A DNA stretch of 59,559 bases, filler included, from Sphacelaria rigidula (Eukaryota), in the NCBI GenBank assembly GCA_964200075.2. It is 6 parts of 6 records of this genome, joined end to end, with 100 filler letters (N's around TTAATTAATTAA, not from the genome) between each part and the next. Parts side by side here need not be neighbours in the genome. Positions count along the whole stretch, not along the records: positions 29,831 to 39,673 come from CAXNAA020007646.1; 5 more parts are not named here. One strand, 5' to 3'. Positions 16,592 to 38,637 of this stretch are shown here, piece after piece; the stretch's first letter is position 1, and each line of letters begins with the position of its first letter. Position numbers and translations under genes: made by a program. Under the pieces are notes generated by a model. The model had not been told where the DNA came from. It made no database searches and saw only the letters and a list, made by a program, of their open reading frames with translations.

Positions 16592-17724
16592 GGTAAGTGT
16601 CAAGACTCTTCGATCCAGTGAACACATAGGAGAGAGACACCTGTGTATGCGTCGCTGTATGCTTGGGAAGCTTGGTTATCGCGCGGCGCTGTCGGTGCTT
16701 GTATGCAGCTCCCTCCATCTCGAGCACTCCGATATCCGCAGTGCGCAGTTCCAAGAAAATTCGGTCGCTTTCTGAGAGTCTCATCGAGCGCGGGTGAAGG
16801 TTTTACAGACTGTTAGTATATTATTGTACTCGCAGCTTGTACACAGATGCACAAGCCTCGCCTATGATGATGCACCAATACATACCGGTATGTTTCGGCG
16901 TTTGACCATCAGACTCAAGTACAGTACATAGCCTGCCGTGCGACTGTCTGTCCCTCAAAAACCGTCGCTTCACTTCACGAGCTGTCTGTGTTTGTGATTC
17001 GCTTTTGGTGCGTTGGGCGGGGGAAAAGGCGGAGGGGGGGTGTAGTGATCATTGCCGTCGAGACGCAGCATGTCTGTGGGCTCAGAAAACTTGGTTCATG
17101 TTTTTTCGTCTCTCCTCTGTTTTCTTTGCGGGAAGAACCCGGGGCAAGGCTTTCCACCTGATTGTTTTACCACTTCCAGTAACAGACACACGAAGCTAGC
17201 ACTTAGTCGCGCATTCGTGCGAGCTATTGTATATGGTAGTAGCGGCATGCATCAAGTCGAGCTGACGTCCGTGTGGTTGCGGTGCAGCACGAGAAAAGTC
17301 TACTAGCTCTTCTTGTGCTCATTGCTTCCTTCCCTCAGAGAAAACGTGCTGCTGCACTACAGACAGTAGTATAATGCGGCATCATAAAAAAAATATCGTG
17401 CATCTTTGCTTTTGCGACTCATACGATGGGATAACATATGCTGTGTGTTCTAAAATTGACGGTCTACAGACAGAACAACACGAAACGTCACTTCAGTCAT
17501 CAGGGGGATTTTTTTCTTTCGAAAGCAACTGCAGAAACATACTACAGACAGTAGTGGTTACAGTACAGTTTTATGATGTTGCGTTTGTATTCATTGTACG
17601 AGTATGATTGTGATTGTACAAACAGTATTATAATGTCTAAATTTAGTATCTTCATGGTCTGCCGTCAGTGTGCTGCACACCACAGTACATGTTCCATTTG
17701 GCCAATGATAAAGAGCAAGCGGGC

Positions 17725-17726
<2 letters not shown>

Positions 17727-17766
<40 letters not shown>
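17727..17766. repeat. (AT)20 microsatellite
   Basis: Directly visible in the sequence. Confidence 0.97.
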
Positions 17767-17768
<2 letters not shown>

Positions 17769-18537
17769 TGCACGCACAGGCGTGCATTTGTCGCTTGTTC
17801 CTCCCATTTTTTGGTCGTTCCAGCGTTTGCTACAACAGCAGTGTACGTATATGTCTGTGTGCGGTACTGACCGCCATGTGTGCATAGACAGATACCGAAC
17901 AGTCATGGAACGAAATATGAAAAAAGTACCTACTTGACGACCCATCATCTAAATGGTCCATGCAGTATGGTATTAGTCCAAATCGATCGTCCAGCCAGCC
18001 AGCCGTTCGCGGGAGTCAAGCACATACATTCGTATTTCCCAAACGACGTGGTTGTTTTTTTCATATATGCGCTCGGCACATTCCTTTTAAGGGATGATGG
18101 TGACCCATGATTACTTCACCGTCCGTATTCGTACCGACCGAGGCAAGAAGAGTCCAAAACAACACAACAGGCACAAAGTTGGAAAAAAAGGTTGTTTTTT
18201 GCGTCGTACCGGAGACAGTGTCGTACGAGCAGCATGTTCAAAATACTCGTGCAAACACGAGATCTTGAAAAAATCCGCGTACAAACGAACGCGGGCTTTT
18301 ATAAATTGCGGGTGGATTTTTTTTCATGGTGAACCTTGAACGCGTGGGGACGTTCTCAAAGCATCGAAATATTCTCGAAAACAAAGTGCATCTGCACTAT
18401 ACGTATATCCGACCCTGAAAAAGCAAAACATTCTTGAGGATTTGCATAATCCCGTGTTATGATGGCAAACGAGAACAGTTTTCGTACGGGGTTGAACGGA
18501 GGCCGAAGTTGGTCGGTGTGTGTTATACACGAGCCGG

Positions 18538-18921
18538 TCGCCCCGATGGCCCAGTTGGTAACCTCGAAACCTTCTGACGGTTGGGTCGTGGGTTCGAATC
18601 TCGGTGAGGTCATATGGCTGGGATTTTTTCTCCCACCATGACACCAACAGCTTAGAGCGACCGTGTCGTGGCTACGCGTACACAAAATTCGACTTCATGG
18701 TCGACGACAGAAATGGACCTCTGAACGTCTCTCACGATAAATAAGAAGGAAGGAAAGCATCGCCGAAGGAAGGTAGAGCAATAAATGAGAATGAAAAATA
18801 GAAAACTCTTGTGTTGGCATTCTTCCTTTTGTGACCCTGGCTGATGCGCCGACATACTGTATACCGAAAGGTGTAGACTGGGGTGTAGAATAGGTGGGAA
18901 AACAAAACAACATACACACAC

Positions 18922-18922
<1 letters not shown>
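18538..18922 (+). mobile_element. tRNA-derived SINE, family 1 (tRNA-Arg(TCT)-like head)
   Basis: The head has an A box (tggcccagttgg), a ccttctgacgg loop and a B box (ggttcgaatc). A ~300-nt body and CA-rich tail follow. It matches 44814-45175. Confidence 0.85.
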
Positions 18923-18923
<1 letters not shown>

Positions 18924-18974
<51 letters not shown>

Positions 18975-19182
18975 TGCGTTGTGTCCCATTTATTCTGGAC
19001 ACCAGTCTACACCTTTCGGTGTATGTGGGCGCACCAGTCGGGGTCACAAAGGAGGAAGGCCAACACACACAGGGGTTTTTCCTTTTTTGTTGGTTTCTAG
19101 TTCTCCACCTTCCTTCTGCGGTGCTTGTCTTCACTTTTCATCGCGAGAGGGGTTCAGCAGTCCCTTTCCCTCGTCGACCATC
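18924..19182 (-). mobile_element. SINE family 1, 3' part with (TG)n tail, tail-to-tail with the previous copy
   Basis: ccagtctacacctttcggt...ggggtcacaaaggaggaa...ccttccttc is the approximate reverse complement of 18690-18900. The copy is cut off by the insertion at 19185. Confidence 0.85.
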
Positions 19183-19184
19183 AA

Positions 19185-19787
19185 CCCTTTTGGGACCGAC
19201 CCCCCACTAACACAGGGTTGACTCTGTGTCAATGAAATGATAAAAAAAAAAAGTCTTCGAGCGACCTGCCCAATCACGGCGAGGCGAAATTTATCGACCA
19301 GACCCGAACGACCAGTGCTGGGGTTGTTGGCGAGTATGATGCCACTGCGAAGATCGTGTGGGGACCCTATCCCTGGCCCAGATAAGCCTTCGCAGGTTTC
19401 CAAGCGCAGGGCGGTCGGAACTTGGTTATATGATATGACTTGCACTCAGTATACCGTTCCCGAGTTTTCCGGTGGGTTTTTTGGGTCTCAATTCCCTACT
19501 AAAACGTGGTAATTTACACTAACACAGGGTCGACCGGAAAACCTGGGAAGGAGTGTACATGCTGTAATGTGGTCATTTTCATGAGGCACTAGACCCAGGT
19601 GGGCCGTGGGAAGACAAAAGGAGCTACCGTCATGAATTCTGCGTATCCCTCTGCCGATGACTTGCAGTCAACATGTATGTAGTGGGCGGGGATGAAGAAG
19701 CGGTATAATATAGGCAGTTGATCTCGGTAGCTGAGAATTGCCCAGAACGTGCAAGGGAGTGTACAGCGGCAGCTGCTGCTTCAGTCG
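19185..19787 (+). mobile_element. Non-autonomous piggyBac-like element, second copy, truncated by the scaffold end
   Basis: Begins cccttttgggaccg and is colinear with the reverse complement of ~36915-37528. Confidence 0.8.
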
Positions 19788-19887
19788 NNNNNNNNNNNNN
19801 NNNNNNNNNNNNNNNNNNNNNNNNNNNNNNNTTAATTAATTAANNNNNNNNNNNNNNNNNNNNNNNNNNNNNNNNNNNNNNNNNNNN
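19788..19887. other. Artificial scaffold linker
   Basis: N44-TTAATTAATTAA-N44. Confidence 0.97.
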
Positions 19888-21732
19888 CGGTAGGAAAAAC
19901 CATTATGTGAGATTCTGAACGATAGCGTAGGAACGATGCTAGAAAAGGAAGACAAAATCAGCGAGGGGCAAGCAGGAGTTGGACCAAACCGTAGTTGCGT
20001 AGATCATGTGTACAGACTAGGTAAGATTATTCAAGGTAGAAAAGACGCCGGCGTGACAACGTACTGTTTCTTTCTGGACGTGCAAAAGTCTTGCGACACA
20101 GTATGGAGAAATGGACTGAGGAAATATTTGTGTGAAACTGGGATCAGAGGAAAGATGTGGAGAATGGCGAAGAAGATGACAGGGTGTGCCAATAGTGCTA
20201 TGATGCTAGACGGGGAAATATCGAAATATTTTTATGTTCTACAAGGAGTTGCACAAGGATGTACGATATCAGCCACTTTGTTCAAGGTATTTATTAATGA
20301 CCTGAAATAGCAATAAAAGCGGCAAAGCAAGGAGTCAAGGTGGGTAAGGATGTGGCATCAGGATTGATGTTCGCGGATGATTTTGTGGGGATTTCAGAAA
20401 CACCAGAAGGATTACAGACACAGATAGACCAGGGGTGAAATACGCCAGGAAATGGAGAGTGAAAGCGAACGCTGATAAATGCACGGTACGTGTATGTAAC
20501 GAAGAAAAGAAAAAAATCCGGTAGAGTTCAAATGGAAGTGGGGAGAAGAGGAACTGCCGATCGTAGACCAGTATTCATAACTTGGCGTAGAGACATAAAA
20601 AAACTGTTCTGGGGATGCACACATGAAAAAAGTGATGAAAAGGGTAAGGCACAGATAGGCAGGATGGACGTGATCCTAAGAGATTCGCATGTAGACACGA
20701 GGATTAAGATATGTATCCTGATGAGCGTGATTGTACCAAAGCTGGAATATGCAGGAGAAGTACGGGAGAGGAACGTGAAGTTGATGAAGAAGTTGGAAAC
20801 AGTACAGATGGCAGCAGCTACAAAAATACTTGGGTGCTTGCAAATAATGAGCACTACAGCATTGAGAGTAGAGTTGGGAATGTATCCACTTAAAACAAAC
20901 AGGGACATGAGGAAATTGAGATGGTAAAAGAGCGTAAAGAACATGCAGACCAAGAGATTGCCAGCCATAGTTGATAAGGCTGTATGGAAGAAATTTACTA
21001 AAGGGCAGGCTGAAATACGGTGGGATAGAGAAGTAGAGAAAGTGTGCAATAAGATAGGCGGAAACCAAGGCGAAATACTGTCCATAAGTGAAGGCGCAGA
21101 GTACAATACAAAAAAACGAGACAAGATAGAGAGGAGGGGAAAAGGAGTGCTCAGACGCAAGGTAGACAAGGGGGAACACCTGGAGATATACAGTAGGTTG
21201 AAAGAGGGGATAGGGATGCAAATATATCTGCATGACCCAATGGACGCTGCGAAAAATATCAAACTGTGATTTCGGGTGGGGGGCCTAGACCTGCCAGAAA
21301 GAAGAAAGAGATATACCAGTGGTCGAAAGGAGGAGGAAGTAGATGAACAGAACTGCCTCTGTGGCAAAGGAATAGAGAGCATAAATCATATAGTGGCAGA
21401 ATGTGAACTATACAAGGAGGAACGNNNNNNNNNGGACGTGCTTGAGAGGGAAATGCGGGACGTGAACAAAGGTGGCATGAAATGGTTTGATGCACTAGAC
21501 AGTAGGGAGAACGCGATGTCTATACTAGGAGATAGATGGTGGCCCCAGACGGCGAAAGGACGGGGATAAGATATGTAAGAGGTTTTTGTGTAGTGTATGG
21601 AAAAAACTTCATGAGCACCGAAATTTTGGAGATGTCTTCGTTAGGAGTAGGAACGGTGCTCCGTCTCGAAAGGATGCGTGTTCAATGGTCAAACGACCAG
21701 GGAAGCAACAAATGAGTACAACCCCTTCCCCT
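19888..21732 (+). mobile_element. Degenerate LINE ORF2: reverse transcriptase plus C-terminal CCHC knuckle (possibly RTEX-like), with 3' end
   Basis: RT motifs FFLDVQKSCDTVWRNGL, GVAQGCTIS.TLF.VFINDL, GLMFADDFVG and IVPKLEYAGEV, then CLCG...ESINHIVAECELY. Multiple stops and frameshifts. Confidence 0.93.
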
Positions 21733-24700
21733 ATTGTAGCATGCCCTATCGTAGCAAGGCTCTCTAGCCGAGGCAACGCAATCACGCTGACCTGAATAGT
21801 ACGAAGTACTTGTTGGGAGCATACACCCCACCGTAGACAGATCGCACGCCGCAAGGCACTGCACGCAGCACCGACGCAGCCTCCCCTTCTCCCCCAGCAC
21901 CGCCAATGCCTTCGGCCGGGGGCACGGATGTAGGGAGCACGGGCGGCGGGATGAGAGGCCTGTCGCTGAGCAGCTGCAGGCGCCAAGATCCCTTAGCTAG
22001 ATCCTTCTTCCTGGGACATGACCGATATGAGTTGCGGTAGCGGGATGTACATGACAAGTGCGCATAGGTTTGCTGAGCTGGCTGTCCAAGTTTGGTGGGG
22101 AACCGAATGATAGTTGTTGGGTTTTTACTGTTCAAGATTTCACGAGGTTGGCAGCATCGCAGGAGCGATCGGTCGCCGAGCAGCTTCAGGTAATAATACC
22201 GGAGGCCTCTTGAGGGTACCGTTGGATTTTGCACCCGGCATCCGAGAGAATGACCGCCGCTACGTGTTACGGTACTTGTACTGCGATGCAAATGATTCAA
22301 TTCCGTCTCACGGAGGCGTCGTCGTTTCTGTGCAGAGGCAGGTAAAACTTTCCTGGATGCTTGCACGCCGGTTGAGCTCAATTCTGGTTATTTCAGAACA
22401 CTCACTGTTTCAATGAAGTCGTTTTTGAATAGTAAACACGGGATCTCTGAGCCCTTTCCAGCGTAGTGGGATAGAAAAATGTAGGCTCAGAGTGTATATG
22501 AGATTATCTACACAATGGATCGTGATATTGCTGACTATGTGAGGCATCAAGTCAAGGTTTGTGAGAGAGGCAAGAGATGCAGGTGAAGTATGGTTACCAG
22601 GCTGCTGTGAGCATCTCGACCTTGCGTTCAGAGCTAGTTAATGTCGGACTGGTTCTACGGTAGGAGTGTGAATTTTTGTGCTTAGGCTCTGCACTTTAAA
22701 ACCCTCTGGGTAACACACATCTGGGCTTTAGTGTGCAGCCTCGGAAATCTTTCGGACTAAAACATGCACCCGTACCGTCGAACTACTCGTCGACTCAAGA
22801 TCAGTCCGGTGCCGGTATCCTATGTGATTCAATAGTTGTATATTATCCCTTTCTTTGCCATTTTGAAAATATGCCATACGCCCATGTGTCTGCACTCGCT
22901 GTTCGATTTGATGTATTACTCTTGTAGAGTTGTTGTGCAGTTCTGATAAGATGGGCTTGGTCAAGCTTAGAAGCGGCGACCAGCTGCAGGAGTCAAGGCC
23001 AACCACTCGGAAGTCCGTTCCGCACTCTAGCACCTTCATTTTTCGAATACGAGGTGGTAGGACTGAGGTTTTTACGAACACGGACATGAAGTGCTTTTTG
23101 TTTCCGTTTAACAGTGACCAACAGACCCGACTGTTTCAACCCACGATGAGCATGAACCAGCCCGCCCCCTTAGACGTCTTTTTTCAAACATGCATTCTAC
23201 GTCAATCCTAACCTGGTGAAGAAAACTACTCTGGCATTTTTCGGGAAATTTCGAAACCGTCCGAAAAATGTCCGAGATTTCGTCTGAAAGAAACGTCCCA
23301 TCAATGACATCCCTCAATATTATGTTCGCCTTATACGTTCTCCCATCCGAAGAAGATTTTCCCCCTGAGATATACTCCTGTGTGGAAACCTTGTTTTGTC
23401 TCTTTCACCACCCGTTTAAAAAAAAGTCTAGCTGTTGTCAGTGACCCAAGATATGGAAAACGTATTCATGTCTGATTTCCGAGTTCACCGTGAGCCAAAA
23501 GTGAAAATCTGTCCAAGATATCCCGTTTGTGCTACCTCTTGTCTCGATCTGTCTTAATCGCATGTACCTTATCAAGCACAGGAAAAAGTGCACTACCCCC
23601 TACGTCGACGGTACTTGGCCCGCGTTGTCCGCCGTAACTGCCTTCAACCGGTGGATGCAGACAATTTTCATCTTCATTTCGACATATATGGTAATGAGCA
23701 ATCCTCCGCTTTCCCCCCCCCTCCCCTCCCCTCCCTTCCCCTCCCCCTCCCCCCCGAAAGAACGACCATTCTTTATTGCGCCTTTCCTACCCCACGTCCC
23801 TATCCACCTCCTCATCTCTACCCCTTCCAGTTCCCCGCTGTCGATCTTCATGCGTCCGTATCAATCATTACTTATTTTCGTTCAGAAAGCAAGTACCAGC
23901 AGCGTTGATAACACTTGCAGGTAAAGTGGTGATTTTCACTTATTTCAGACGAGTGGGAGTGACAGTATTCGCGGGCGACAAGGCAATATTTATGCGTATC
24001 AGACGTGAATCGTCGGCGGAACTGAGCGCCTCAACACTGAGGAACTTGAGTCGACGCTTTTCCAATGCAGCTATGGTTGACAGTTTTGTTTTCACTTCAT
24101 TCATAATGCTCTCGCCGAAATACGGGGTTGTTAGATCCGTGCATCAGTGGAGGGTTGGGGAACGATAGCACGCGTGATTGATCGCTTGGTTGTCTCTTGT
24201 ACGTGCACACCAGCCACGTACGCCGGCACGAACAGGTACAAAACAATCAATAATCAACCCCACGTACGAGCATTCTACCCATCCCCATCAGCACCGGCCA
24301 CATAGCTTTACACACATGATGCGGTAGCAACGAACACGACCTGCAACAGGGGCTGTACTGTAGCACGGTAGTGTTTCTTCTCTCACGCGCTACGCCGCAG
24401 CCGTGCGCTAGGTCGCATACAATTTCACTCTGACAAGTACATCCTCTTTCGTTTGTCAGGATCGTTCGTTTTGGGTATACCGTCGACGACGCCGCCCCCT
24501 CAGCAACGACGATGCAAAACACTACACGACCAGTACCACGTACGTGAACCATGGAATACATGTGGCCAATTTACTTTTGTTTTCGTACCCGGAACCCATG
24601 ATAACCTCCAGCAGTGGAGGAGTGATTCCGCGATTGCCCTCCCCCCAAACCAGCTCCAAAACTGCCACGAAGAAAATGGTCATACAGCGCATGATAGCTG

Positions 24701-25012
24701 GTTTCACACTGCATGAACCCCCTCATGTGGGCGACATTGGCGGAAACGATCCCACGTGTGATTTCGATTTACATATAGATTTTGCCTCCTCAAACCAGCC
24801 ACCTTGCGGGTGTACTCATGATCATGCACGGGGGGGGGGGGGGGGGGAACTGGGGTGTATCCAAGGGGAGCGGTGGATGGGGGAACACAAAACTAACCCC
24901 CACCAAGGGAACAAAATTAATGGTCNNNNNNNNNNCACACACACTTCCTCTTTTTTATATACTTTTTTTTTCTCCTCCCCCCCCCCCCCCCCCCCCTCGT
25001 GGGGCGTCATCG

Positions 25013-25043
<31 letters not shown>

Positions 25044-25217
25044 CTATCGCGGTGTTCATCGGGGATCGGTTGATGTGCGGACACAAACATGATCCGCACC
25101 ATGAGTACAACATTTATGGGCTGCACAAAAAACTGTCCGGCCTGAACCGAAGATAGCTGTGCTGGTGGTAATGGGTGTGTAGAGAGCATGACACACCCCC
25201 TCGCGACTGATTTACAG

Positions 25218-25440
25218 CATGACAGATGGGATCCTGAAAAATATGGGAACGATATTCTTCTATGGGAACGAGCTAAGGTCTAGGTTCTATATAGTATTGC
25301 ACTTGGTTCCTGCCATACGCACCTTTGAACAGTTCAAACGTACGTTTGACTCGGTACTAGTTGCATATTATATGCAATTTCGACCTCAGTTGGTTCCCGT
25401 AGAAAAACCTCGTTCTCATTGTTCAGGACCCCGTGTGATG
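25218..25440. mobile_element. Fold-back MITE
   Basis: gggatcctgaa...gaacga...ttctatgggaac..gctaaggtc pairs with gacctcagt..gttcccgtagaa...tcgttc...ttcaggacccc. Confidence 0.65.
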
Positions 25441-25872
25441 TGATCAGAGGTCGAAGCTTGCGTGACAAAACATGCTCGAGGCGTCCTGCTAGTCGGGAGA
25501 GTGGGGCACTCGCTTACATGCGGTCCTTGTTATGATGCATCGCCCCTAAAGCAAACATTTCAAGCTACACTAGGGTACTGGAACCACTTTGGTTGACGAA
25601 TAAATGGGATTTGTATGATACAACTGGTGATTCGTATAGACTGACGGATTGTCACACATTAACTGACCCCTAATCGTCATTTTAATTGGACACGCTCATG
25701 CTCAGCATGCTACTATTTTGGGACGGAACTTACCCGACCACAGTGGGGTGAACGCTTTTGATACGCATCCCATATGGCCCTACATTTTTTTTTTACCCTC
25801 TCTCGCAACCGTGGGCGTCTGTGGATAGTGACGCGTCTGAACCAGGAATAGGAGCGAACAAATCCGGCGGAG

Positions 25873-26409
25873 CTAAAGTGTTGAATGAAAGTCTTGGTCA
25901 TTACCTTTGACAAAAATCACTGAAAACACACACCTGCTGTATGCTGCGACGAGAAGACTGTAACCATTTGTGTTCGGCTCCAGAGCCATGGGGTTGGTAT
26001 GCAGGGAAGGCTGACAGTGCTCCTCCCCCGTGTCATGATCCACTACCACGATGTGCGCCGATAGTGACGCGTCTGAGACGTGTAAGATCGCCGTGACGAA
26101 CGTCGGTGTTTCATCGCTCTTGGTGCTGTTGGTGTTGGCGATGGTGCTATTTTCGTTTTTGTTTTCGCCATCGGTTTCATTGCTGCTGATGATGTTGTCG
26201 TTGTCGTTGCCATTACCGATAATCTCATTATTCTCAGAGGTATTGCTGCCTACACCCTGAACGCTGAAGGCACGGCGGAATAGAATATGCCAATCACCGG
26301 CTCTAAACATGACAAGGGCAGAACAGAGGATGCGGAATGAGAGGGAAGGGCAAAGTGGCGGGAGAGAGTGGGGTATGCGTGTTCTTAACGAAAACAATTT
26401 GTATTCCAA
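25873..26409 (-). CDS. Low-complexity Asn/Ser/Thr-rich ORF or exon of unknown function, possibly decayed
   Basis: A 178-codon ORF with plausible splice sites (~26266 acceptor, ~25933 donor). An 18-nt segment encoding SDASLS is duplicated at ~25822 and ~26060. Confidence 0.25.
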   Translation of the reverse strand: MEYKLFSLRTRIPHSLPPLCPSLSFRILCSALVMFRAGDWHILFRRAFSVQGVGSNTSENNEIIGNGNDNDNIISSNETDGENKNENSTIANTNSTKSDETPTFVTAILHVSDASLSAHIVVVDHDTGEEHCQPSLHTNPMALEPNTNGYSLLVAAYSRCVFSVIFVKGNDQDFHSTL

Positions 26410-27554
26410 CTATATCCACTCTTCCAACTGCTGTTCGAATTGTCCCAGTCAATACCATGTTTCCTACCATTCCAATTCTTCCATTTCTTCCCAACTCGTT
26501 TCTGTGGACTACGGCGAACTAACACTGAGATGGAGAAAAAAGTAGAAACAACTAAGAGAAACCAAAGAACAAAAGTCGGCTTTGTTTCCAAACACACTCA
26601 TCGCAAAGACTAGCACAAGCTTGACGGTAAGCATCAGTGAGGGGGCACTAGAATAGCTAGGCTTTCAGCGAAATCGGATGGACATTGCGTGCAAACGTTT
26701 AAGCGATTGTTCTTCTAATTCTTGATATTAGGGAGCAAGTGCTCGCTTCTTGTTCGATCTTTGTCACTATTGGACCTGTTTTATGTGAAAAAACTGGAAA
26801 ACTAGAAATGTATAAGCAATCTCATCTTGATAGATGCCTACCAATAGCTGCTTGATGCAACAGCGGCTTCGAGAGCCGCGAAGCTAGTCTGATTGCAGTA
26901 CTGTGTCTGGGAACAGACGAACCTCAACCCGAGGTAGTGAAAAAGGATGTGTAATGCCGCATGTTTATCCCCTCCGGGGGGGGGCGGGGGCAGATTCAAA
27001 GGAGACTTACCCCTTTGTTTGCCTCAAGCAGACTCTTTTCGAGGGGATGCAGCGAGTCAACGGTAATGCAAAAGCGGGCTTTGAATCATGAAGTGCATTG
27101 GCATTTTCCACTTTCGAAAGCGTTGTAAACTCTTTGACCACCACGGTGGGTCATCTATGAATTGGCATCATTTCATAAGGGTCAAGCGCCACATGTTACT
27201 GGGATGCCGTGGTAGAATACTGCAATTTGAAAAAAAAAGAGCGAAATTGTGCTACTCACTTGTCGTTTTAGATGACGATGGCATGTTTGTGAGGGAACCT
27301 GCGAATATTGTCCATTCGATCGTTTCTGATAATCTGGCGTACCTGGTCGTAAGACATGATGCTTGTCTTTGTCTAAGCCCGCATATCAGTGGTTCGTATA
27401 AGCATTGAAATTCAATCTACACATGTTTTACATACAATCACGTACTCATGATAGAGGCGGTACTTTTGATGAGAAGGCAACACGCAGCATGAAGTTTCTG
27501 TTTTCGCCTATGCACAGCACGCACAACAAAGCCCTTCGTTTAGACACGTCTGTT

Positions 27555-27696
27555 GAGTGATGCTACGGTAGGGGTGCAATAACTAGTCCAAAAGTTGCGT
27601 GAGTTTGTGCGCTTAGGCCCAAATGTTATTCATCGAGGGGCTCCTCAAGTCAAGAGCCTCGGAAATGTTTTGTGCATCCCTACCGCAACACCACTC
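27555..27696. mobile_element. MITE family A, short copy 3
   Basis: gagtgatgctacggtaggggtg ... catccctaccgcaacaccactc. Confidence 0.8.
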
Positions 27697-29730
27697 GCTT
27701 CAACCTAAAAACATGTTTTGCATACCCTAGACAATATATTACATTGGCGAAACGTGTACTGCGTGAAGTATGGAATCTATTGTCTATTGCAATCGACGAA
27801 ACAGTTGACACTGTTCGCAGTGTACTTATTGACAATGTAATCTGATGTCTAGGGTGTGATATTTCGTGCTTTCATACTTGCAACCCCTCCTCCTTGGGAT
27901 GAGTCGGCAGTCTTGAGGAATCAGCCCACCTTTTCCCCTCTGTACGTGCCTCACAAGTTCGTTATCACGCATTGAATATTGACCATTCCCATTATGTGAT
28001 GACCACTCCCGCAGGTCGTCGACGCTCATTGAATTCTGGTTTTGCCTCTCGCGTCCCAAGGTCTTCGACAGCAGCAACCGGATGCTCTATCAAAATAGCA
28101 CATCTTTCGGGGTTCAAACACACAGTTCTTCCTTTATTTTTATATTCCTGCATTCTGAAACAAATATCTAGTTCGAGTCCTTAGCTGTTTATTTCTACAG
28201 TGTTTGTTTTCACCTCTCTACTCCCCCCCCCCCCGTCTGTCAACCTTTTCGTCGAGTTTTCCTTCAGCGACCGACCGAGAGTTTCTGTTCATTTTATCGC
28301 GTGTACATACGTCTATCTTGATGTGAAAACGGCCTGGTTCATGACGGATCAGTCAATGCGCAACGATCAACCAAAAAACTGATCAACTATTCAACCGAAG
28401 ACCCTACCTCGGCTACGGTTATCTGGTGCTCACGGCTGTATTTACAGCGGATCTGTTGATGCCAATGTGTGATAACCAACCAGTTAACCAACCGTGCGCC
28501 CTTCGGTCTGTTATGAGGCACATGTCAAAACCTACCCACCCACTCCTGGGTACCATCTCAGGCGCCTTCTTCGATTTACGGATCTTTCTGTAGCGTAACC
28601 AAACCAATCCTCACCCCAACCTTAACGCTGACCCCGACGAAGGTATCCGCGAAACCTTGGGCAACATGAGGTCCTGCTTAACTGTGTTGGTAGGTAGACG
28701 GGACTGTGGCGTAGGCTGGTAGGCACGGTGCTACAGTGCAGTGGCACACAACTGCTCTTCGCATCCAGGGAAACTCGCCTCACTACAACAAAGTGAAATC
28801 AAATGCGCTTCTTGAGATGGTGAAGCACTGCAGTTCTGCAGCGATCGGTGAGATTTGGGCGATGCTGTGCTTGATTCCCGAATCGGCAGCGTTTCTTCAC
28901 GGACTCTTCCGTACGAACGTTAGGTCGTCCCGCCGACGACGCTCGATGAGACCGCTGTGCTTCCACGTAAGGCTGATTGCCTTGGGGGCTGTCTTTGTGT
29001 CCTGGTCCTCGAGTCTGAGTTTCTTCATGTAGCGTAACGCGAAGCGAACACGGCTTCCTCAGGACACGAGTGGTATCTCGTGGGGTCCGCGTCGGCTAGC
29101 AAGCTGCCACTTGCTGGGGGAAAACCTTTCGTGGCAGCTGTTAAGGGGAACCCGACGATGCCCAACACCCCGGAAGCGTGAGAAATGTTTCTCCGTACAC
29201 GGCAGAATGGAATGACTGGCTTGGAAGAAAACCCAGGGGGGAGTGGTTTGAAGAAGGCTAACCTGTGCCGCCGTCAATTCCGACGTTGTCGAATATAAAA
29301 ACGGGAGTACTGACCGGACCCACCGCGTGACAATCAAAGGGAAATGCTGCAGTATGTGATGGAGACTTCAATGGTTTTCTATTTGGAACCTCGGGCTCCA
29401 ACGGGAGGTGACTAGTGACGGGAAAGAGACCAAAAAGAAACGAAGCAGAGCAGGCTCCAGTTTTCGGTGAAGTGCTTGTATCAGTATATCTGATTTGATG
29501 TCGCGGCTTGAAGGCCGATGTGGGCACAGATCACGAAGAGCTGAGCCTGGATATTAAAGATGAGAGTATTATCAACCATATGCTATGTGAGCTAGACTCT
29601 CCGTAGAAGCGGATGGTCAAGCCCTGCAGCTCTTGTTTTTTCGCACATGTCCACCCCCCCCCGCCCCCCCCCCCCCCACCCCTCTCCCCCCCCCCCCCCT
29701 CCCCCCCCGCCTCCCCCCGCGCCCCCCCTA

Positions 29731-34400: not shown

Positions 34401-36199
34401 GCTACGAAAGGAAAAAAAACGTTGAAGAATCATTCAAACCTTGTGCCCGCTCTACTGGCTTCCGGGGGTTCCAGAATGAAGACTCCCGGAAGTCAGTACA
34501 GATTGCTTCAAATTCAAAAATCAAACGTGATTCGTCCCAAGGTAGTCCAAGGAACGTTTGTACGAAGTTTCCATGCGTAACTCGAAAAGGTGATTTCAGA
34601 CGGTCCAAGCTCAGGCGCAACAGGAAAATCTCGGTGGCATACTATAATCAAGTGAATAGGGGGATTCCGCGTATCTTTGTATACCTCAACGCACATATGG
34701 GCGATTAGATTACTCATGGCATCTTCTCGAGTTAGGCCCTGGAGTTTTGCACACGGTTGCTCTGAGATAATTAGAAAGGTTGCATGAATGGGGCCTCTTA
34801 TTTCTACCAGATATCCTGGGACCCCGGATATCTGGAGGGGGAAAATCAACCAATCTCACTCATGTGGCCTTTCCGAATATCTCAGGGCGACTGTGTGCAA
34901 AATTTCAAGATTCTACTCGAAAAAAGCGGCGTGAGTAATCGCTGGGGATTGAATTCCGGTTGTTGACCCTGCCTGACGCAGCCTGTATCATTGGAAGCAC
35001 TTCCAGGTACCACTTGCTTCGAGAGACCTTGGTGCGGGCTCTCTATGCTAGTGTCAGAAAAAAACGTAAAGACCATCGATCGGACAGAGCAGCCTCAGAG
35101 AACGGACAGTACAACAGTTCGTCGAACGACCGGATGACAGCAAACAGACAGACGCGAAGCACCGCACTCGGTATTTGTACGTGGGGGTAGATCGTGAGCA
35201 GGCAGGTTACCTTGACAAACGTTGTGACACCGAAGAAAGCGCAGACGCGGTGGCACAGGAGAAGCGCTCTGTCTTTGGCATTTCCTACAAGTTGTCTGCG
35301 GTGTTCCTGTTGCACACAGCAGCTTAATATCTTGCGAACAAGAATGCTGCACGTCAGCAAACAGAACCACAAGAACGGCGCAAATGTCTGATCGGCAAAG
35401 GGGGTCTACGGTAGTACCTCAGATAGGTGTTGCGGTATTGCGCTAGCGCACCAGACGGACCGGAGTCGAGGAAAGGCGTACCTCCTGCAATGTGGCACGT
35501 GCGGCTTGACGCACCAGCCATTTTTGTCGCCCATATTCTTCCGGCGTAGGCAAAAACAAAATGTGCGGCATGATCCAAATCGCCGACGGCGAAAAACGAA
35601 TTCGGTCCGTTGTTCTCGTCGTAAGGTTAAGGTTCAGCGAAGAAATACAAGGAAAGTGTTTTATATCCCTAAACATGGAACAAAATGACGATGACACAGC
35701 AACAACCAAAGGAACAGGGGAAAGCGTCAATCAGGGTAGATAACTGAAGCTGCCTGCTACAAGCTGGGATAAGAGATGGATACAGCAGAGAGCAAGGGGC
35801 AGACAGAAGATTCAGCTACTCAGACGTATTCTTCAATTTGACTTGCTGATGCATTGTGATGAACAGCTGGTGAACCCATCGCGTTACGTTGCTTAACGCT
35901 GGCTTGTTCAAATTATTTTGCGGTGAAAAACTGTCGGGTGTCGAGTACGGGTAATACCCGAGTGAATACCCCGAGTATGCACAAAATCGTAGCCCACAGA
36001 ACAAGCATTGAAATATTCCGGCACCATGCTTCGATACATGATGATTTTTTAGTAGAGTTGAAGGTGGGCTAGGGTTTGGTACTTGTTTCCTCCCCCATGA
36101 TTCTTCGGACGGTCAAAGGAGGTAATAGTCCCGAGGTAATATCCTGTAGCGTATGGGTACAGAACTTACAGAAATGTTTGGTACCGGTATGAAAGTCTT

Positions 36200-37708
36200 C
36201 ATACGTCGGACGAGCACAAGTGTGACTCGTGGCACTCGCACTCGTTGGGCTGTTCGTTGACCGTAAAAGTTAATAGAGCGAGCACTCGAGTCATCGCTCG
36301 TGGTGGAAAAAATTAATGGGGCGAGCACTCGAGTCATTGCTCGTTGTGGAAAAAAATAATAGGGCGAGCACTCGAGTCATTGCTCGTTGTGGAAATAAAC
36401 AAATAGGGCGAGCACTCGAGTCATTGCTCGTCGTGGAAAACAATTAATAGGCGAGCACTCGAGTCATTGCTCGTTGTGAAACAAGTTAACCCCTTTGGGA
36501 CCGGGCCCCCAGAACGACCAAGGAGGCTGATTGAGCATGACGTGTCTGACGTCTGCACGAAGAAGCGGCATGTTGCTGAAAATCCGAGTACGTAACCGCA
36601 GGGTTACGAGGAAGACCGAAAGTTTTATCCAACCTATTTTCAGGTGCAGGGTGCGCATTAGGTAATGTACATCTGATGTAGCAAGCAGTATGGGTCGCGG
36701 TAAAGAGCTTTCAACAGGATGCGGCGACCGGCGGGTCGCCCGTCACTTGCGGCCTTGGATGATAATAATGTCTCCATCACCTTGCCACACAGCCCTTTGT
36801 GATCGGGGTGGGCCGCCATTTTCCTCTTTGTTGCATGCGGCAAATTATCTAGGGTATGGGCGTTGGGGCGCACATAGATACAGTACAGTACAGTACAGTA
36901 AGTGCAGGACGCCTCCCCGACTGCAGCAGCAGCTGCCGCTGCATACTCCCTTGCACATTCTGGGCAGTTCTCAGCGACGGAGATCAGCTGCCCATGCACA
37001 GCTTGTTCATCCTCGCCCACTACATACATGTTCACAGTGTTCTGCAAGTCATCGGGAGAGGGATAAGCATAATTCATGACGTTAGCTCCTTTTCTCTTTC
37101 CACCACGGCCCACCTGGGTTTAGTGTCTCGTGAAGATGACCACATTGTGGCATGTACACTCCTTCCCGGTTTTACCACTCCACCCTGTGTTAGTGTAATT
37201 ACTACGTTTTAGTATAGGCTGGCGACCCAAAAAAACTCCTGGGAAACCCCGGGAACGCTATGCTGAATGCAAGTAATACAATAAGCCATGCTCCGAGCAC
37301 CCCGGCTTGAGAAGCCTGGGAAGGCTTATCTGGGCCAGGGATAGAGCCCCCACACTATCTTTGCAGTGAAATCACACTCGGCAACAGTTCTCGCGCTGAT
37401 TGTTCGGGTCTGGTCGATAAATTTCTCCTCGCCGTGATTGGGCAGATCGCTCCCTGACTTACTTTTTACTATTTCACGAAGCCATGGTCAACCTCTTGTT
37501 AGTGGGGAGTCGGTCCCACGCAAAAGGGTTAATAGGGCGAGCACTCGAGTCACTGCTCGTTGTAAAAAAAATAAGGTTCGAGCACACGAGTCACTGCTCG
37601 TTGCAAAAAAAAGTAATGACTCGAGCACACGAGTCATGCTCGTTGTGTTTTCGAAAAAAAACACACGAGTTCACTCGTTTCGACGGGTAATGACTCGTCC
37701 GACGTGTG
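36200..37708. mobile_element. hAT-type MITE (15-bp TIR, 8-bp TSD AAAGTCTT) containing a ~43-bp hairpin tandem array
   Basis: TIR catacgtcggacgag / ctcgtccgacgtgtg; TSD at 36192-36199 and 37709-37716. Array units start at 36279, 36322, 36365, 36409, 36452, 37538, 37579 and 37622. Confidence 0.88.
36490..37528 (-). mobile_element. Non-autonomous piggyBac-like element (CCC...GGG ends, TTAA TSD) carrying a coding fragment
   Basis: ttaa|cccctttgggaccg ... cggtcccacgcaaaaggg|ttaa. No transposase is present; there is an internal ORF at 36658-37113 (-). A second copy starts at 19185. Confidence 0.85.
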
Positions 37709-38637
37709 AAAGTCTTACGCACAGAACATGTCGGTAAAACGGTATGTATAGAGGTTGTGAAGAAATCTTTACCCGCAACCGGGTATTTCTACAAGGGTAT
37801 ATCCGTGCCCCGGGTAAGGGAAAACAGTTCATTCCGATCTCATAGAACCTGTCAGGTACCGGTATGAGAGGCTTACAGAACTCACAGAACATGTCGGGTA
37901 CTGGTGTAATCGTGCAGAGCTCACAGACCTGTTGGGTTCGGGTAACTCCCCGGGTATACACAAAATCGTACCTACAGAAGTATCCATGACCACTTTGTGT
38001 GCTGTGTTGGCTAAAACAAAGCCGAACTTTTTCATGACATCGCTACAAATGTGCACTGTTCAATGACATCGCTACAAATGTGGACGGCAGTGTAGCGATT
38101 CCTTGACTTTTCCAGGCTTCTCCTTTTGGTGTGTTAAACAGCGTGACACGATCTGTGTTGTTTCACAGCTATGTATCGGCTGAGGTATCAGTGCACTGTA
38201 CCGTCCCGCAAAGTTGTGCTGTGCCGCACTTCGCAGCATATCCTGGAGTGTTTCTGTCTGTTAGCATCGCTCCACCCTCCGAAATAGCATGCCTAAAAAG
38301 CCTAACAGCAGTGCTGTGCTGGTGTGGTAGCACCTTACATAGATATCAATTTACAACAGCACAGTCAGCGGCACAAGAACGCAGGGTTGAACCGACTTAC
38401 CGTTGCGGCGTGGGGGCTGCAGGGTCTGAAATTGTGCGCAACCTGGTTGTGTTCTTTCCCAGCCACCTCCATCGGTGCATTACGAGGCAGGAACCCCTTT
38501 GGTTCCGGCGATGCCGTTTGTTCAGCCTTAGCTCTCCTCATGCTCGAGGAGATGGTGAATCTATGCCTTCGCCTATATTTACCGTTGCACGACAAAGCGC
38601 CTTTACCGTATTGTCGTAATTACACCGTCGGTGTTAC

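Follow-up and report, generated by a model that had tools for sequence, protein, structure and literature searches.

The stretch of Sphacelaria rigidula DNA analysed here (59,559 nucleotides, referred to below as the window) contains a 1,039-bp element set into an array of a 43-bp satellite. On inspection of the sequence, the element proves to be bracketed by two copies of TTAA; it holds an open reading frame (ORF) on the minus strand and has a second copy elsewhere in the window (Table 1).

Table 1. Features of the element, its insertion site and its second copy, in window positions
Feature	Position	Strand	Remarks
Whole non-autonomous piggyBac-like element	36490..37528	-	1,039 bp; strand set by the ORF, which makes the right end the 5' end
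TTAA target-site duplication, left copy	36486..36489	.	from satellite register
TTAA target-site duplication, right copy	37529..37532	.	from satellite register
Left terminal inverted repeat (CCCCTTTGGGACCGGGCCCCCA)	36490..36511	+	from inverted-repeat pairs; pattern restricted to element ends
Right terminal inverted repeat (minus-strand reading CCCTTTTGCGTGGGACCGACTCCCCA)	37503..37528	-	about 4 bases longer than the end of copy 2
Internal copy of the subterminal motif (CACTAACA..)	37179..37195	-	second occurrence at 37488-37504, abutting the right terminal inverted repeat
43-bp satellite, left flank	36265..36489	.	insertion target; from repeat analysis
43-bp satellite, right flank	37533..37646	.	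continues the left array; from repeat analysis
151-codon ORF, probably a decayed copy of a family-wide orphan exon	36658..37113	-	GTG start; conserved in-frame ATG at codon 13 (37075-37077)
(TACAG)n microsatellite in the ORF	36879..36898	.	private to this copy or a minority; gives the 'CTYCTVLYC' stretch
Second family copy (copy 2), opposite orientation	19183..19787	+	corresponds to 36918-37530; 80.5% identity over 621 bases (blastn, element against window)

The element starts with CCCCTTTGGGACC, with CCCC at the tip, and ends with GGTCCCACGCAAAAGGG, with AAGGG at the tip. Two features of piggyBac elements are present, namely the TTAA target-site duplication (TSD) and the 5'-CCC..GGG-3' termini (CCCCTTTGGG.. 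and ..CAAAAGGG). The terminal inverted repeats (TIRs) are about 22 nt long and imperfect, with an indel. Their core, TGGGACCGRNYCCCCA, matched three times in the 59.6-kb window, always at element ends, where 0.30 matches were expected, and none of 100 shuffled windows attained three matches. The subterminal motif recurs as a pair in copy 2 (at about 19203-19225 and 19517-19535), and CACTAACA.. is a possible transposase-binding repeat. Pfam searches of the ORF and of six further ones in the element gave no match above threshold, either to a transposase or to any other family. The earlier note had described a 1039-bp element with CCC...GGG ends, a TTAA TSD and no transposase, carrying a 151-codon minus-strand ORF with a 'PGG' upstream in another frame. 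This anatomy is borne out by the coordinates, the satellite register, the TIR scan and the Pfam searches; the ORF and the out-of-frame 'PGG' are present as described.

The satellite provides an internal control for the insertion. Its units start at 36313, 36356, 36400 and 36443, and then at 37529 and 37570; the spacing across the element, 1086, equals 43 + 1039 + 4. Since the array is exactly in register once the element and one TTAA, 1,043 bases altogether, are removed, the array acts as its own empty site and shows a true insertion with a 4-bp duplication. The complete TSD pair was inspected for this one copy. None of the 15 joints listed from public-run contigs, beside which 768 further joints exist, was an exact empty site; the listed joints over the element connect satellite units at other offsets and may stem from other satellite loci.

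The surroundings are repetitive on a larger scale as well. A further highly repeated unit (36160-36489 and 37533-37890) encloses the piggyBac-like element; the two arms of this unit hold the 43-bp satellite and end in inverted motifs (..ACGTCGGACGAG.. on both sides). Positions 36158 and 37890 are loose ends of many contigs, and the summed depth in the satellite reaches about 2.5 million.

Copies in the window and in public runs

Copy 2 starts with the same terminus as the element, preceded by TCAA at its sole visible end. Of the ORF it retains the 5' part, from which 7 bases are deleted and in which the frame meets a stop. It stops at a gap (19789-19887) composed of two N-runs around TTAATTAATTAA. 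This gap is an artificial linker, and the truncation of copy 2 is an artefact of assembly and not biology. Between the two copies, 103 substitutions and 9 indels were counted. One of the indels lies beside the N-run, and of the eight real ones six are not multiples of three. Beyond the gap, a reverse-transcriptase fragment (RVT_1, E 8.6e-10) marks a degenerate retroelement at 19894-20307 (to about 21600) that is interrupted by stops and, at about 21425, by a further N-run.

Parts of the element are contained in nine public run records from three studies, all given either as one and the same organism or as 'algae metagenome'. The numbers of contigs aligned to 36100-37900 (1.8 kb) in four runs were 29,112, 16,994, 23,628 and 992, with 16,994-29,112 contigs in each of the DNA-type runs; these figures include the flanking satellite, and contig depth is no measure of copy number. 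Four run records are presumed to be RNA; of these, X5 was among the aligned runs, and its RNA label is a guess. All 30 bins of the 36100-37900 region were covered, the majority of contigs were 90-99% alike, and individual variants were supported by up to at least 128 contigs. Repetition is high throughout the element and extends to the ORF. In run X5, six contigs align from 36486 and are dissimilar upstream of this position, which hints, weakly, at a TTAA flank in other copies as well.

The ORF region is as deep as the ends of the element in four runs, contig depth again being no copy count, and it is also present in copy 2; what lacks it is a rare deletion variant. The latter was seen as a joint (36718>37421) that skips 702 bases, with the ORF region gone, in one or two contigs per run in three runs. 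It is a rare, shorter deletion derivative of the family.

The open reading frame and its possible origins

An exhaustive phmmer search of the ORF against 1.84 billion protein representatives yielded 12 matches at E <=0.001. Nine of them are short orphan peptides (54-170 aa) with ENA, Logan and NCBI as sources, two of which are annotated as 'unnamed protein product [Sphacelaria rigidula]'. Each of the seven peptides that were looked up forms a cluster of its own, with one contig as its source. The ATG at codon 13 is common to all eight peptides that cover this position. P0007 and P0008, which are close family members, change frame half-way, as decaying copies would. At only 38-41% identity to the ORF, P0001, P0002, P0013 and P0011 are nevertheless colinear with it in one frame over about 65-128 residues; their alignment runs from the common ATG via '..HPDHPGLCGK..' to about residue 125, with conservative replacements. 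After about residue 125 both P0001 and P0013 read 'Q-VS' and then diverge, and this point looks like a splice donor. Judged by these peptides, the orphan exon is common to diverged subfamilies.

Whether such conservation could arise by drift was approached by simulation. Neutral drift to 38-45% amino-acid identity left the frame without a stop with a probability of about 0.02-0.03 and introduced about 9-10 indels in 348 bases, with the indel rate set to that between the element and copy 2 (9 events for 103 substitutions, the one at the N-run included). The comparison suggests that coding constraint acted on the exon during the divergence of the subfamilies, an argument weakened by ascertainment because only open copies are predicted as proteins and the copies are very many.

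The copy at this locus appears to have left that constraint behind. In the ORF, 10 differences between this copy and the family majority were listed, and at four of them (Tyr40, Arg53, Ile116 and Thr122) the majority residue is that of most diverged peptides. By manual count, the ORFs of copy 1 and copy 2 differ at 7 first, 3 second and 6 third codon positions. Most family contigs diverge from this copy between about 36850 and 36901, as seen in a dip of depth in bin 36832-36892 and in loose ends at 36850 and 36901. The exon seems to be drifting neutrally here, and a functional protein is most likely not made. Nor do models reveal a recognisable fold for the exon: AlphaFold2 with a 10-row alignment of the ORF gave pLDDT 48.7 and pTM 0.26, and the Atlas model of P0002 has pLDDT 0.37, no feature match and a best structural TM of 0.40. 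A profile search of the PDB returned one match, a RING domain, at E 4.5.

We consider it likely that the element is a decayed copy from a highly repeated, transposase-less family of cut-and-paste DNA transposons of piggyBac type, and that its ORF is an eroded orphan exon of about 115-125 codons and not a fragment of senataxin. Most likely, this exon derives from the 5' UTR and first coding exon of the own gene of an autonomous master element. An internal deletion of the latter would have spared the first coding exon together with a 5' leader of about 415 bp and some 170 bp at the 3' end. The conserved ATG lies about 450 bp from one element end and the ORF points inward, which fits an origin by internal deletion. 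The grounds for assigning the exon to the master's own gene are two, its position and the inferred constraint. The N-terminal parts of piggyBac transposases are poorly conserved, which would explain the missing profile match. The shortened derivative could move only with a piggyBac transposase made elsewhere; a family-matched enzyme would mobilise it in trans by recognising the ends of about 22 nt (CCCYTTTGGGACCG..) and perhaps the subterminal repeat. Its insertion at a TTAA inside the 43-bp satellite duplicated that TTAA.

An unlikely alternative is Pack-type capture, in which the exon would come from an unannotated, lineage-specific host gene of brown algae and not from a gene of the transposon. 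The apparent coding constraint and the lack of similarity to transposases agree with it, as do Pack-MULE-like non-autonomous families with non-transposase genes, which are described for Ectocarpus (PMC12477816). However, the parent protein did not appear in any search, although S. rigidula proteins are present in the library: no identifiable host parent gene was found in the 1.84 billion representatives, in the searches of proteins of 299-2000 aa or in the rest of the window. Within the reach of the databases, no host gene corresponds to the cargo, an outcome that the earlier note had itself named as a refutation of the capture it proposed. Moreover, all nine relatives are short peptides and those looked up are solitary one-contig clusters, while the depth of the exon, equal to that of the termini, points to a core of the family and not to variable cargo. 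Its presence in several diverged subfamilies would require either repeated capture or capture before their split followed by constraint inside the transposon.

Similarly improbable is the broader proposal that the exon of this hugely amplified family is truly protein-coding, resembles no known family and stayed under purifying selection as the subfamilies diverged. Its source would be either a captured lineage-specific host gene other than senataxin or the transposase of brown-algal piggyBac elements, of which it would form a new N-terminal module. If this were true, the host could receive antisense or small RNAs, or additional exons, from thousands of copies.

The opposite view, that the ORF was never coding and is a chance open frame in a non-coding element, with spurious gene calls as its related peptides, appears decidedly improbable. 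It would account for an ORF that has no Pfam family, fold or named function, for the second halves of P0007 and P0008 being read in another frame, and for gene calls that form single-member clusters. Four peptides that share the ATG and stay colinear in one frame at 38-41% identity, with conservative replacements, speak against it, as do the indels and stops expected under neutrality.

Class of the element

The available features support a non-autonomous, TTAA-targeting element of piggyBac type, with membership read from the TSD and the termini only. The TTAACCC motif occurs once in the window, and no further TTAA-CCC..GGG-TTAA pair was found there. Among the 169 stop-to-stop ORFs of at least 90 aa in the window, the 20 that were scanned contained no transposase. 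As to an autonomous partner, the protein searches gave no long protein beginning with the ORF exon, and no autonomous copy was seen in the window. A scan with the TIR pattern picked out 11 loci on metagenome contigs; blastn showed no relation of any of them to the element (lowest E 0.83 and 2.9), and they were discarded as chance matches. Apart from the element, the minus strand holds an open frame at 25876-26409 with similarity to FAP42 domain B2 (E 1.7e-8) and to Androglobin domain IV (E 3.3e-5); a flagellar or androglobin-like gene of the host probably has one of its exons here.

It is very improbable that the element belongs to another superfamily that duplicates TTAA or 4 bp, such as Kolobok or Sola. 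The TTAA duplication is not exclusive to piggyBac, being made by Kolobok as well (PMC9587614), Sola-1 and Sola-2 families are among those given for Ectocarpus in PMC12477816, and no transposase was seen in the element. Kolobok shares with the element the TTAA-specific 4-bp duplication but has 5'-RR..YY-3' ends (PMC9587614), whereas the element has 5'-CC..GG-3' ends and so lacks the Kolobok termini. Ends of the CCCTTT..AAAGGG kind are documented for piggyBac-like TIRs: in Tables 1-2 of PMC2872659, which cover six piggyBac-like transposons of corals and six families of MITEs, most TIRs start with CCCTTT and end with AAAGGG.

The survey of transposable elements in Ectocarpus lists four DNA/PiggyBac families with 1,588 copies (PMC12477816), so piggyBac in brown algae is already in print, and the view that no piggyBac family is known there is outdated. 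The family described here adds a non-autonomous piggyBac-like member to a known kind. The words 'piggyBac' and 'DNA transposons' do not occur in the Phaeoexplorer preprint, and the piggyBac passages of PMC6431247 concern Teratorn and cargo size. No report of a piggyBac family carrying gene fragments was found in the literature searched, which is not proof of absence.

The relevance of the family is mainly one of annotation: the region calls for masking as a repeat of the non-autonomous piggyBac-like kind, and the short gene models labelled 'unnamed protein' on copies of the family should be regarded as transposon-derived. Should an autonomous master be found, it would reveal either the N-terminus of a brown-algal piggyBac transposase or a real capture.

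Senataxin and other known systems

The earlier note took the element for a 'Pack-piggyBac' whose cargo was the captured 5' end of a host senataxin/Sen1 gene. The first part of this label, a non-autonomous TTAA element with piggyBac-type ends, stands; the senataxin cargo found no support. The resemblance was examined indirectly, by the Pfam profile SEN1_N (which we take to be PF12726), by the exhaustive protein search and by conservation in the family, with a negative outcome in all three. None of the 10 family peptides (the ORF and nine relatives) matched SEN1_N in hmmscan with E values up to 10, although this profile may not reach the extreme N-terminus of senataxin; the same scan returned two unrelated one-member matches, at E 0.068 and 0.13. 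No senataxin-sized protein was present among the 12 phmmer matches, where the only long proteins were three with chance motifs, and word-indexed searches with the family alignment or with P0002 gave no match among proteins of 299-2000 aa. Two of the three long proteins, P0004 (893 aa) and P0012 (398 aa), match residues 44-75 only, via repeated C-x2-C..C-x2-C units, and are regarded as chance matches; the third, P0009 (807 aa), matches at residues 72-93 through a short repeat only.

The residues on which the resemblance depended are not features of the family. At base 36957, 119 contigs carry A>G, with 758,657 of 771,483 in summed depth in run X1 and likewise in the other runs. The codon of Cys53, the second Cys of 'CPEC', is TGT in this copy and CGT, for Arg, in the family majority; Arg occupies residue 53 in copy 2 (CGT) and in all four diverged peptides. 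The 'CTYC' that follows 'CPEC' is made by the (TACAG)n microsatellite, which is missing in most family contigs, and the C-terminal motif aligned to senataxin is conserved in no relative in the peptide alignment. As an observation in its own right, the private CGT>TGT change and the microsatellite together create a C-x2-C..C-x2-C pattern at 36895-36966 on the minus strand that attracts zinc-ribbon repeat proteins and IBR_1. The IBR_1 match (E 0.13) and those to P0004 and P0012 were rejected as chance, since their C-x2-C..C-x2-C depends on Cys53, private to this copy, and on the microsatellite. The case illustrates how a CpG-type change confined to one copy, together with a microsatellite, can mimic a Cys-rich motif and draw supposed similarities, such as that to senataxin, as well as zinc-ribbon database matches.

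The resemblance is best explained as chance aided by private mutations, and capture of the 5' end of a senataxin/Sen1 gene has next to no credibility, as a proposed order of motifs and a C-x2-C with a hydrophobic C-terminal stretch in the ORF are set against the failed profile and protein searches, the private Cys53, a C-terminal motif not kept in relatives and a model of low confidence. Compared with the N-terminal domain of senataxin/Sen1 (SEN1_N), the ORF has no demonstrable likeness, the sole link being the motif order put forward in the earlier note; it has no profile or sequence match and no confident fold, and the aligned Cys is a private mutation.

The likeness to the carriers of gene fragments among Pack-MULE, Pack-CACTA and Helitron elements lies in a non-autonomous structure with an internal ORF unrelated to transposases. 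The Sphacelaria element differs from them in belonging to another superfamily, in having no detected host parent, and in an ORF that appears to be core to the family and to its diverged subfamilies. MITEs are short (usually under about 800 bp), non-coding and of high copy number, with TIRs and a TSD. High multiplicity, TIRs and a TSD are found in the element as well, but with its 1,039 bp and relic exon it is atypical for a plain MITE and nearer to an internal-deletion derivative.

The closest parallels are the coral CMITEs and AmiPB1-6 (PMC2872659, Tables 1-2) and the DNA/PiggyBac families of Ectocarpus (PMC12477816), with which the element has in common, variously, the TTAA duplication, short CCCTTT..AAAGGG TIRs, the absence of a transposase, a high copy number and presence in a brown alga. 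The coral MITEs in these tables measure about 100 bp, whereas the Sphacelaria element, at 1,039 bp, is about ten times longer. It also differs from the coral and Ectocarpus piggyBac-like elements in keeping a long orphan exon, which was apparently once coding, and in a TIR of about 22 nt that is imperfect and contains an indel.
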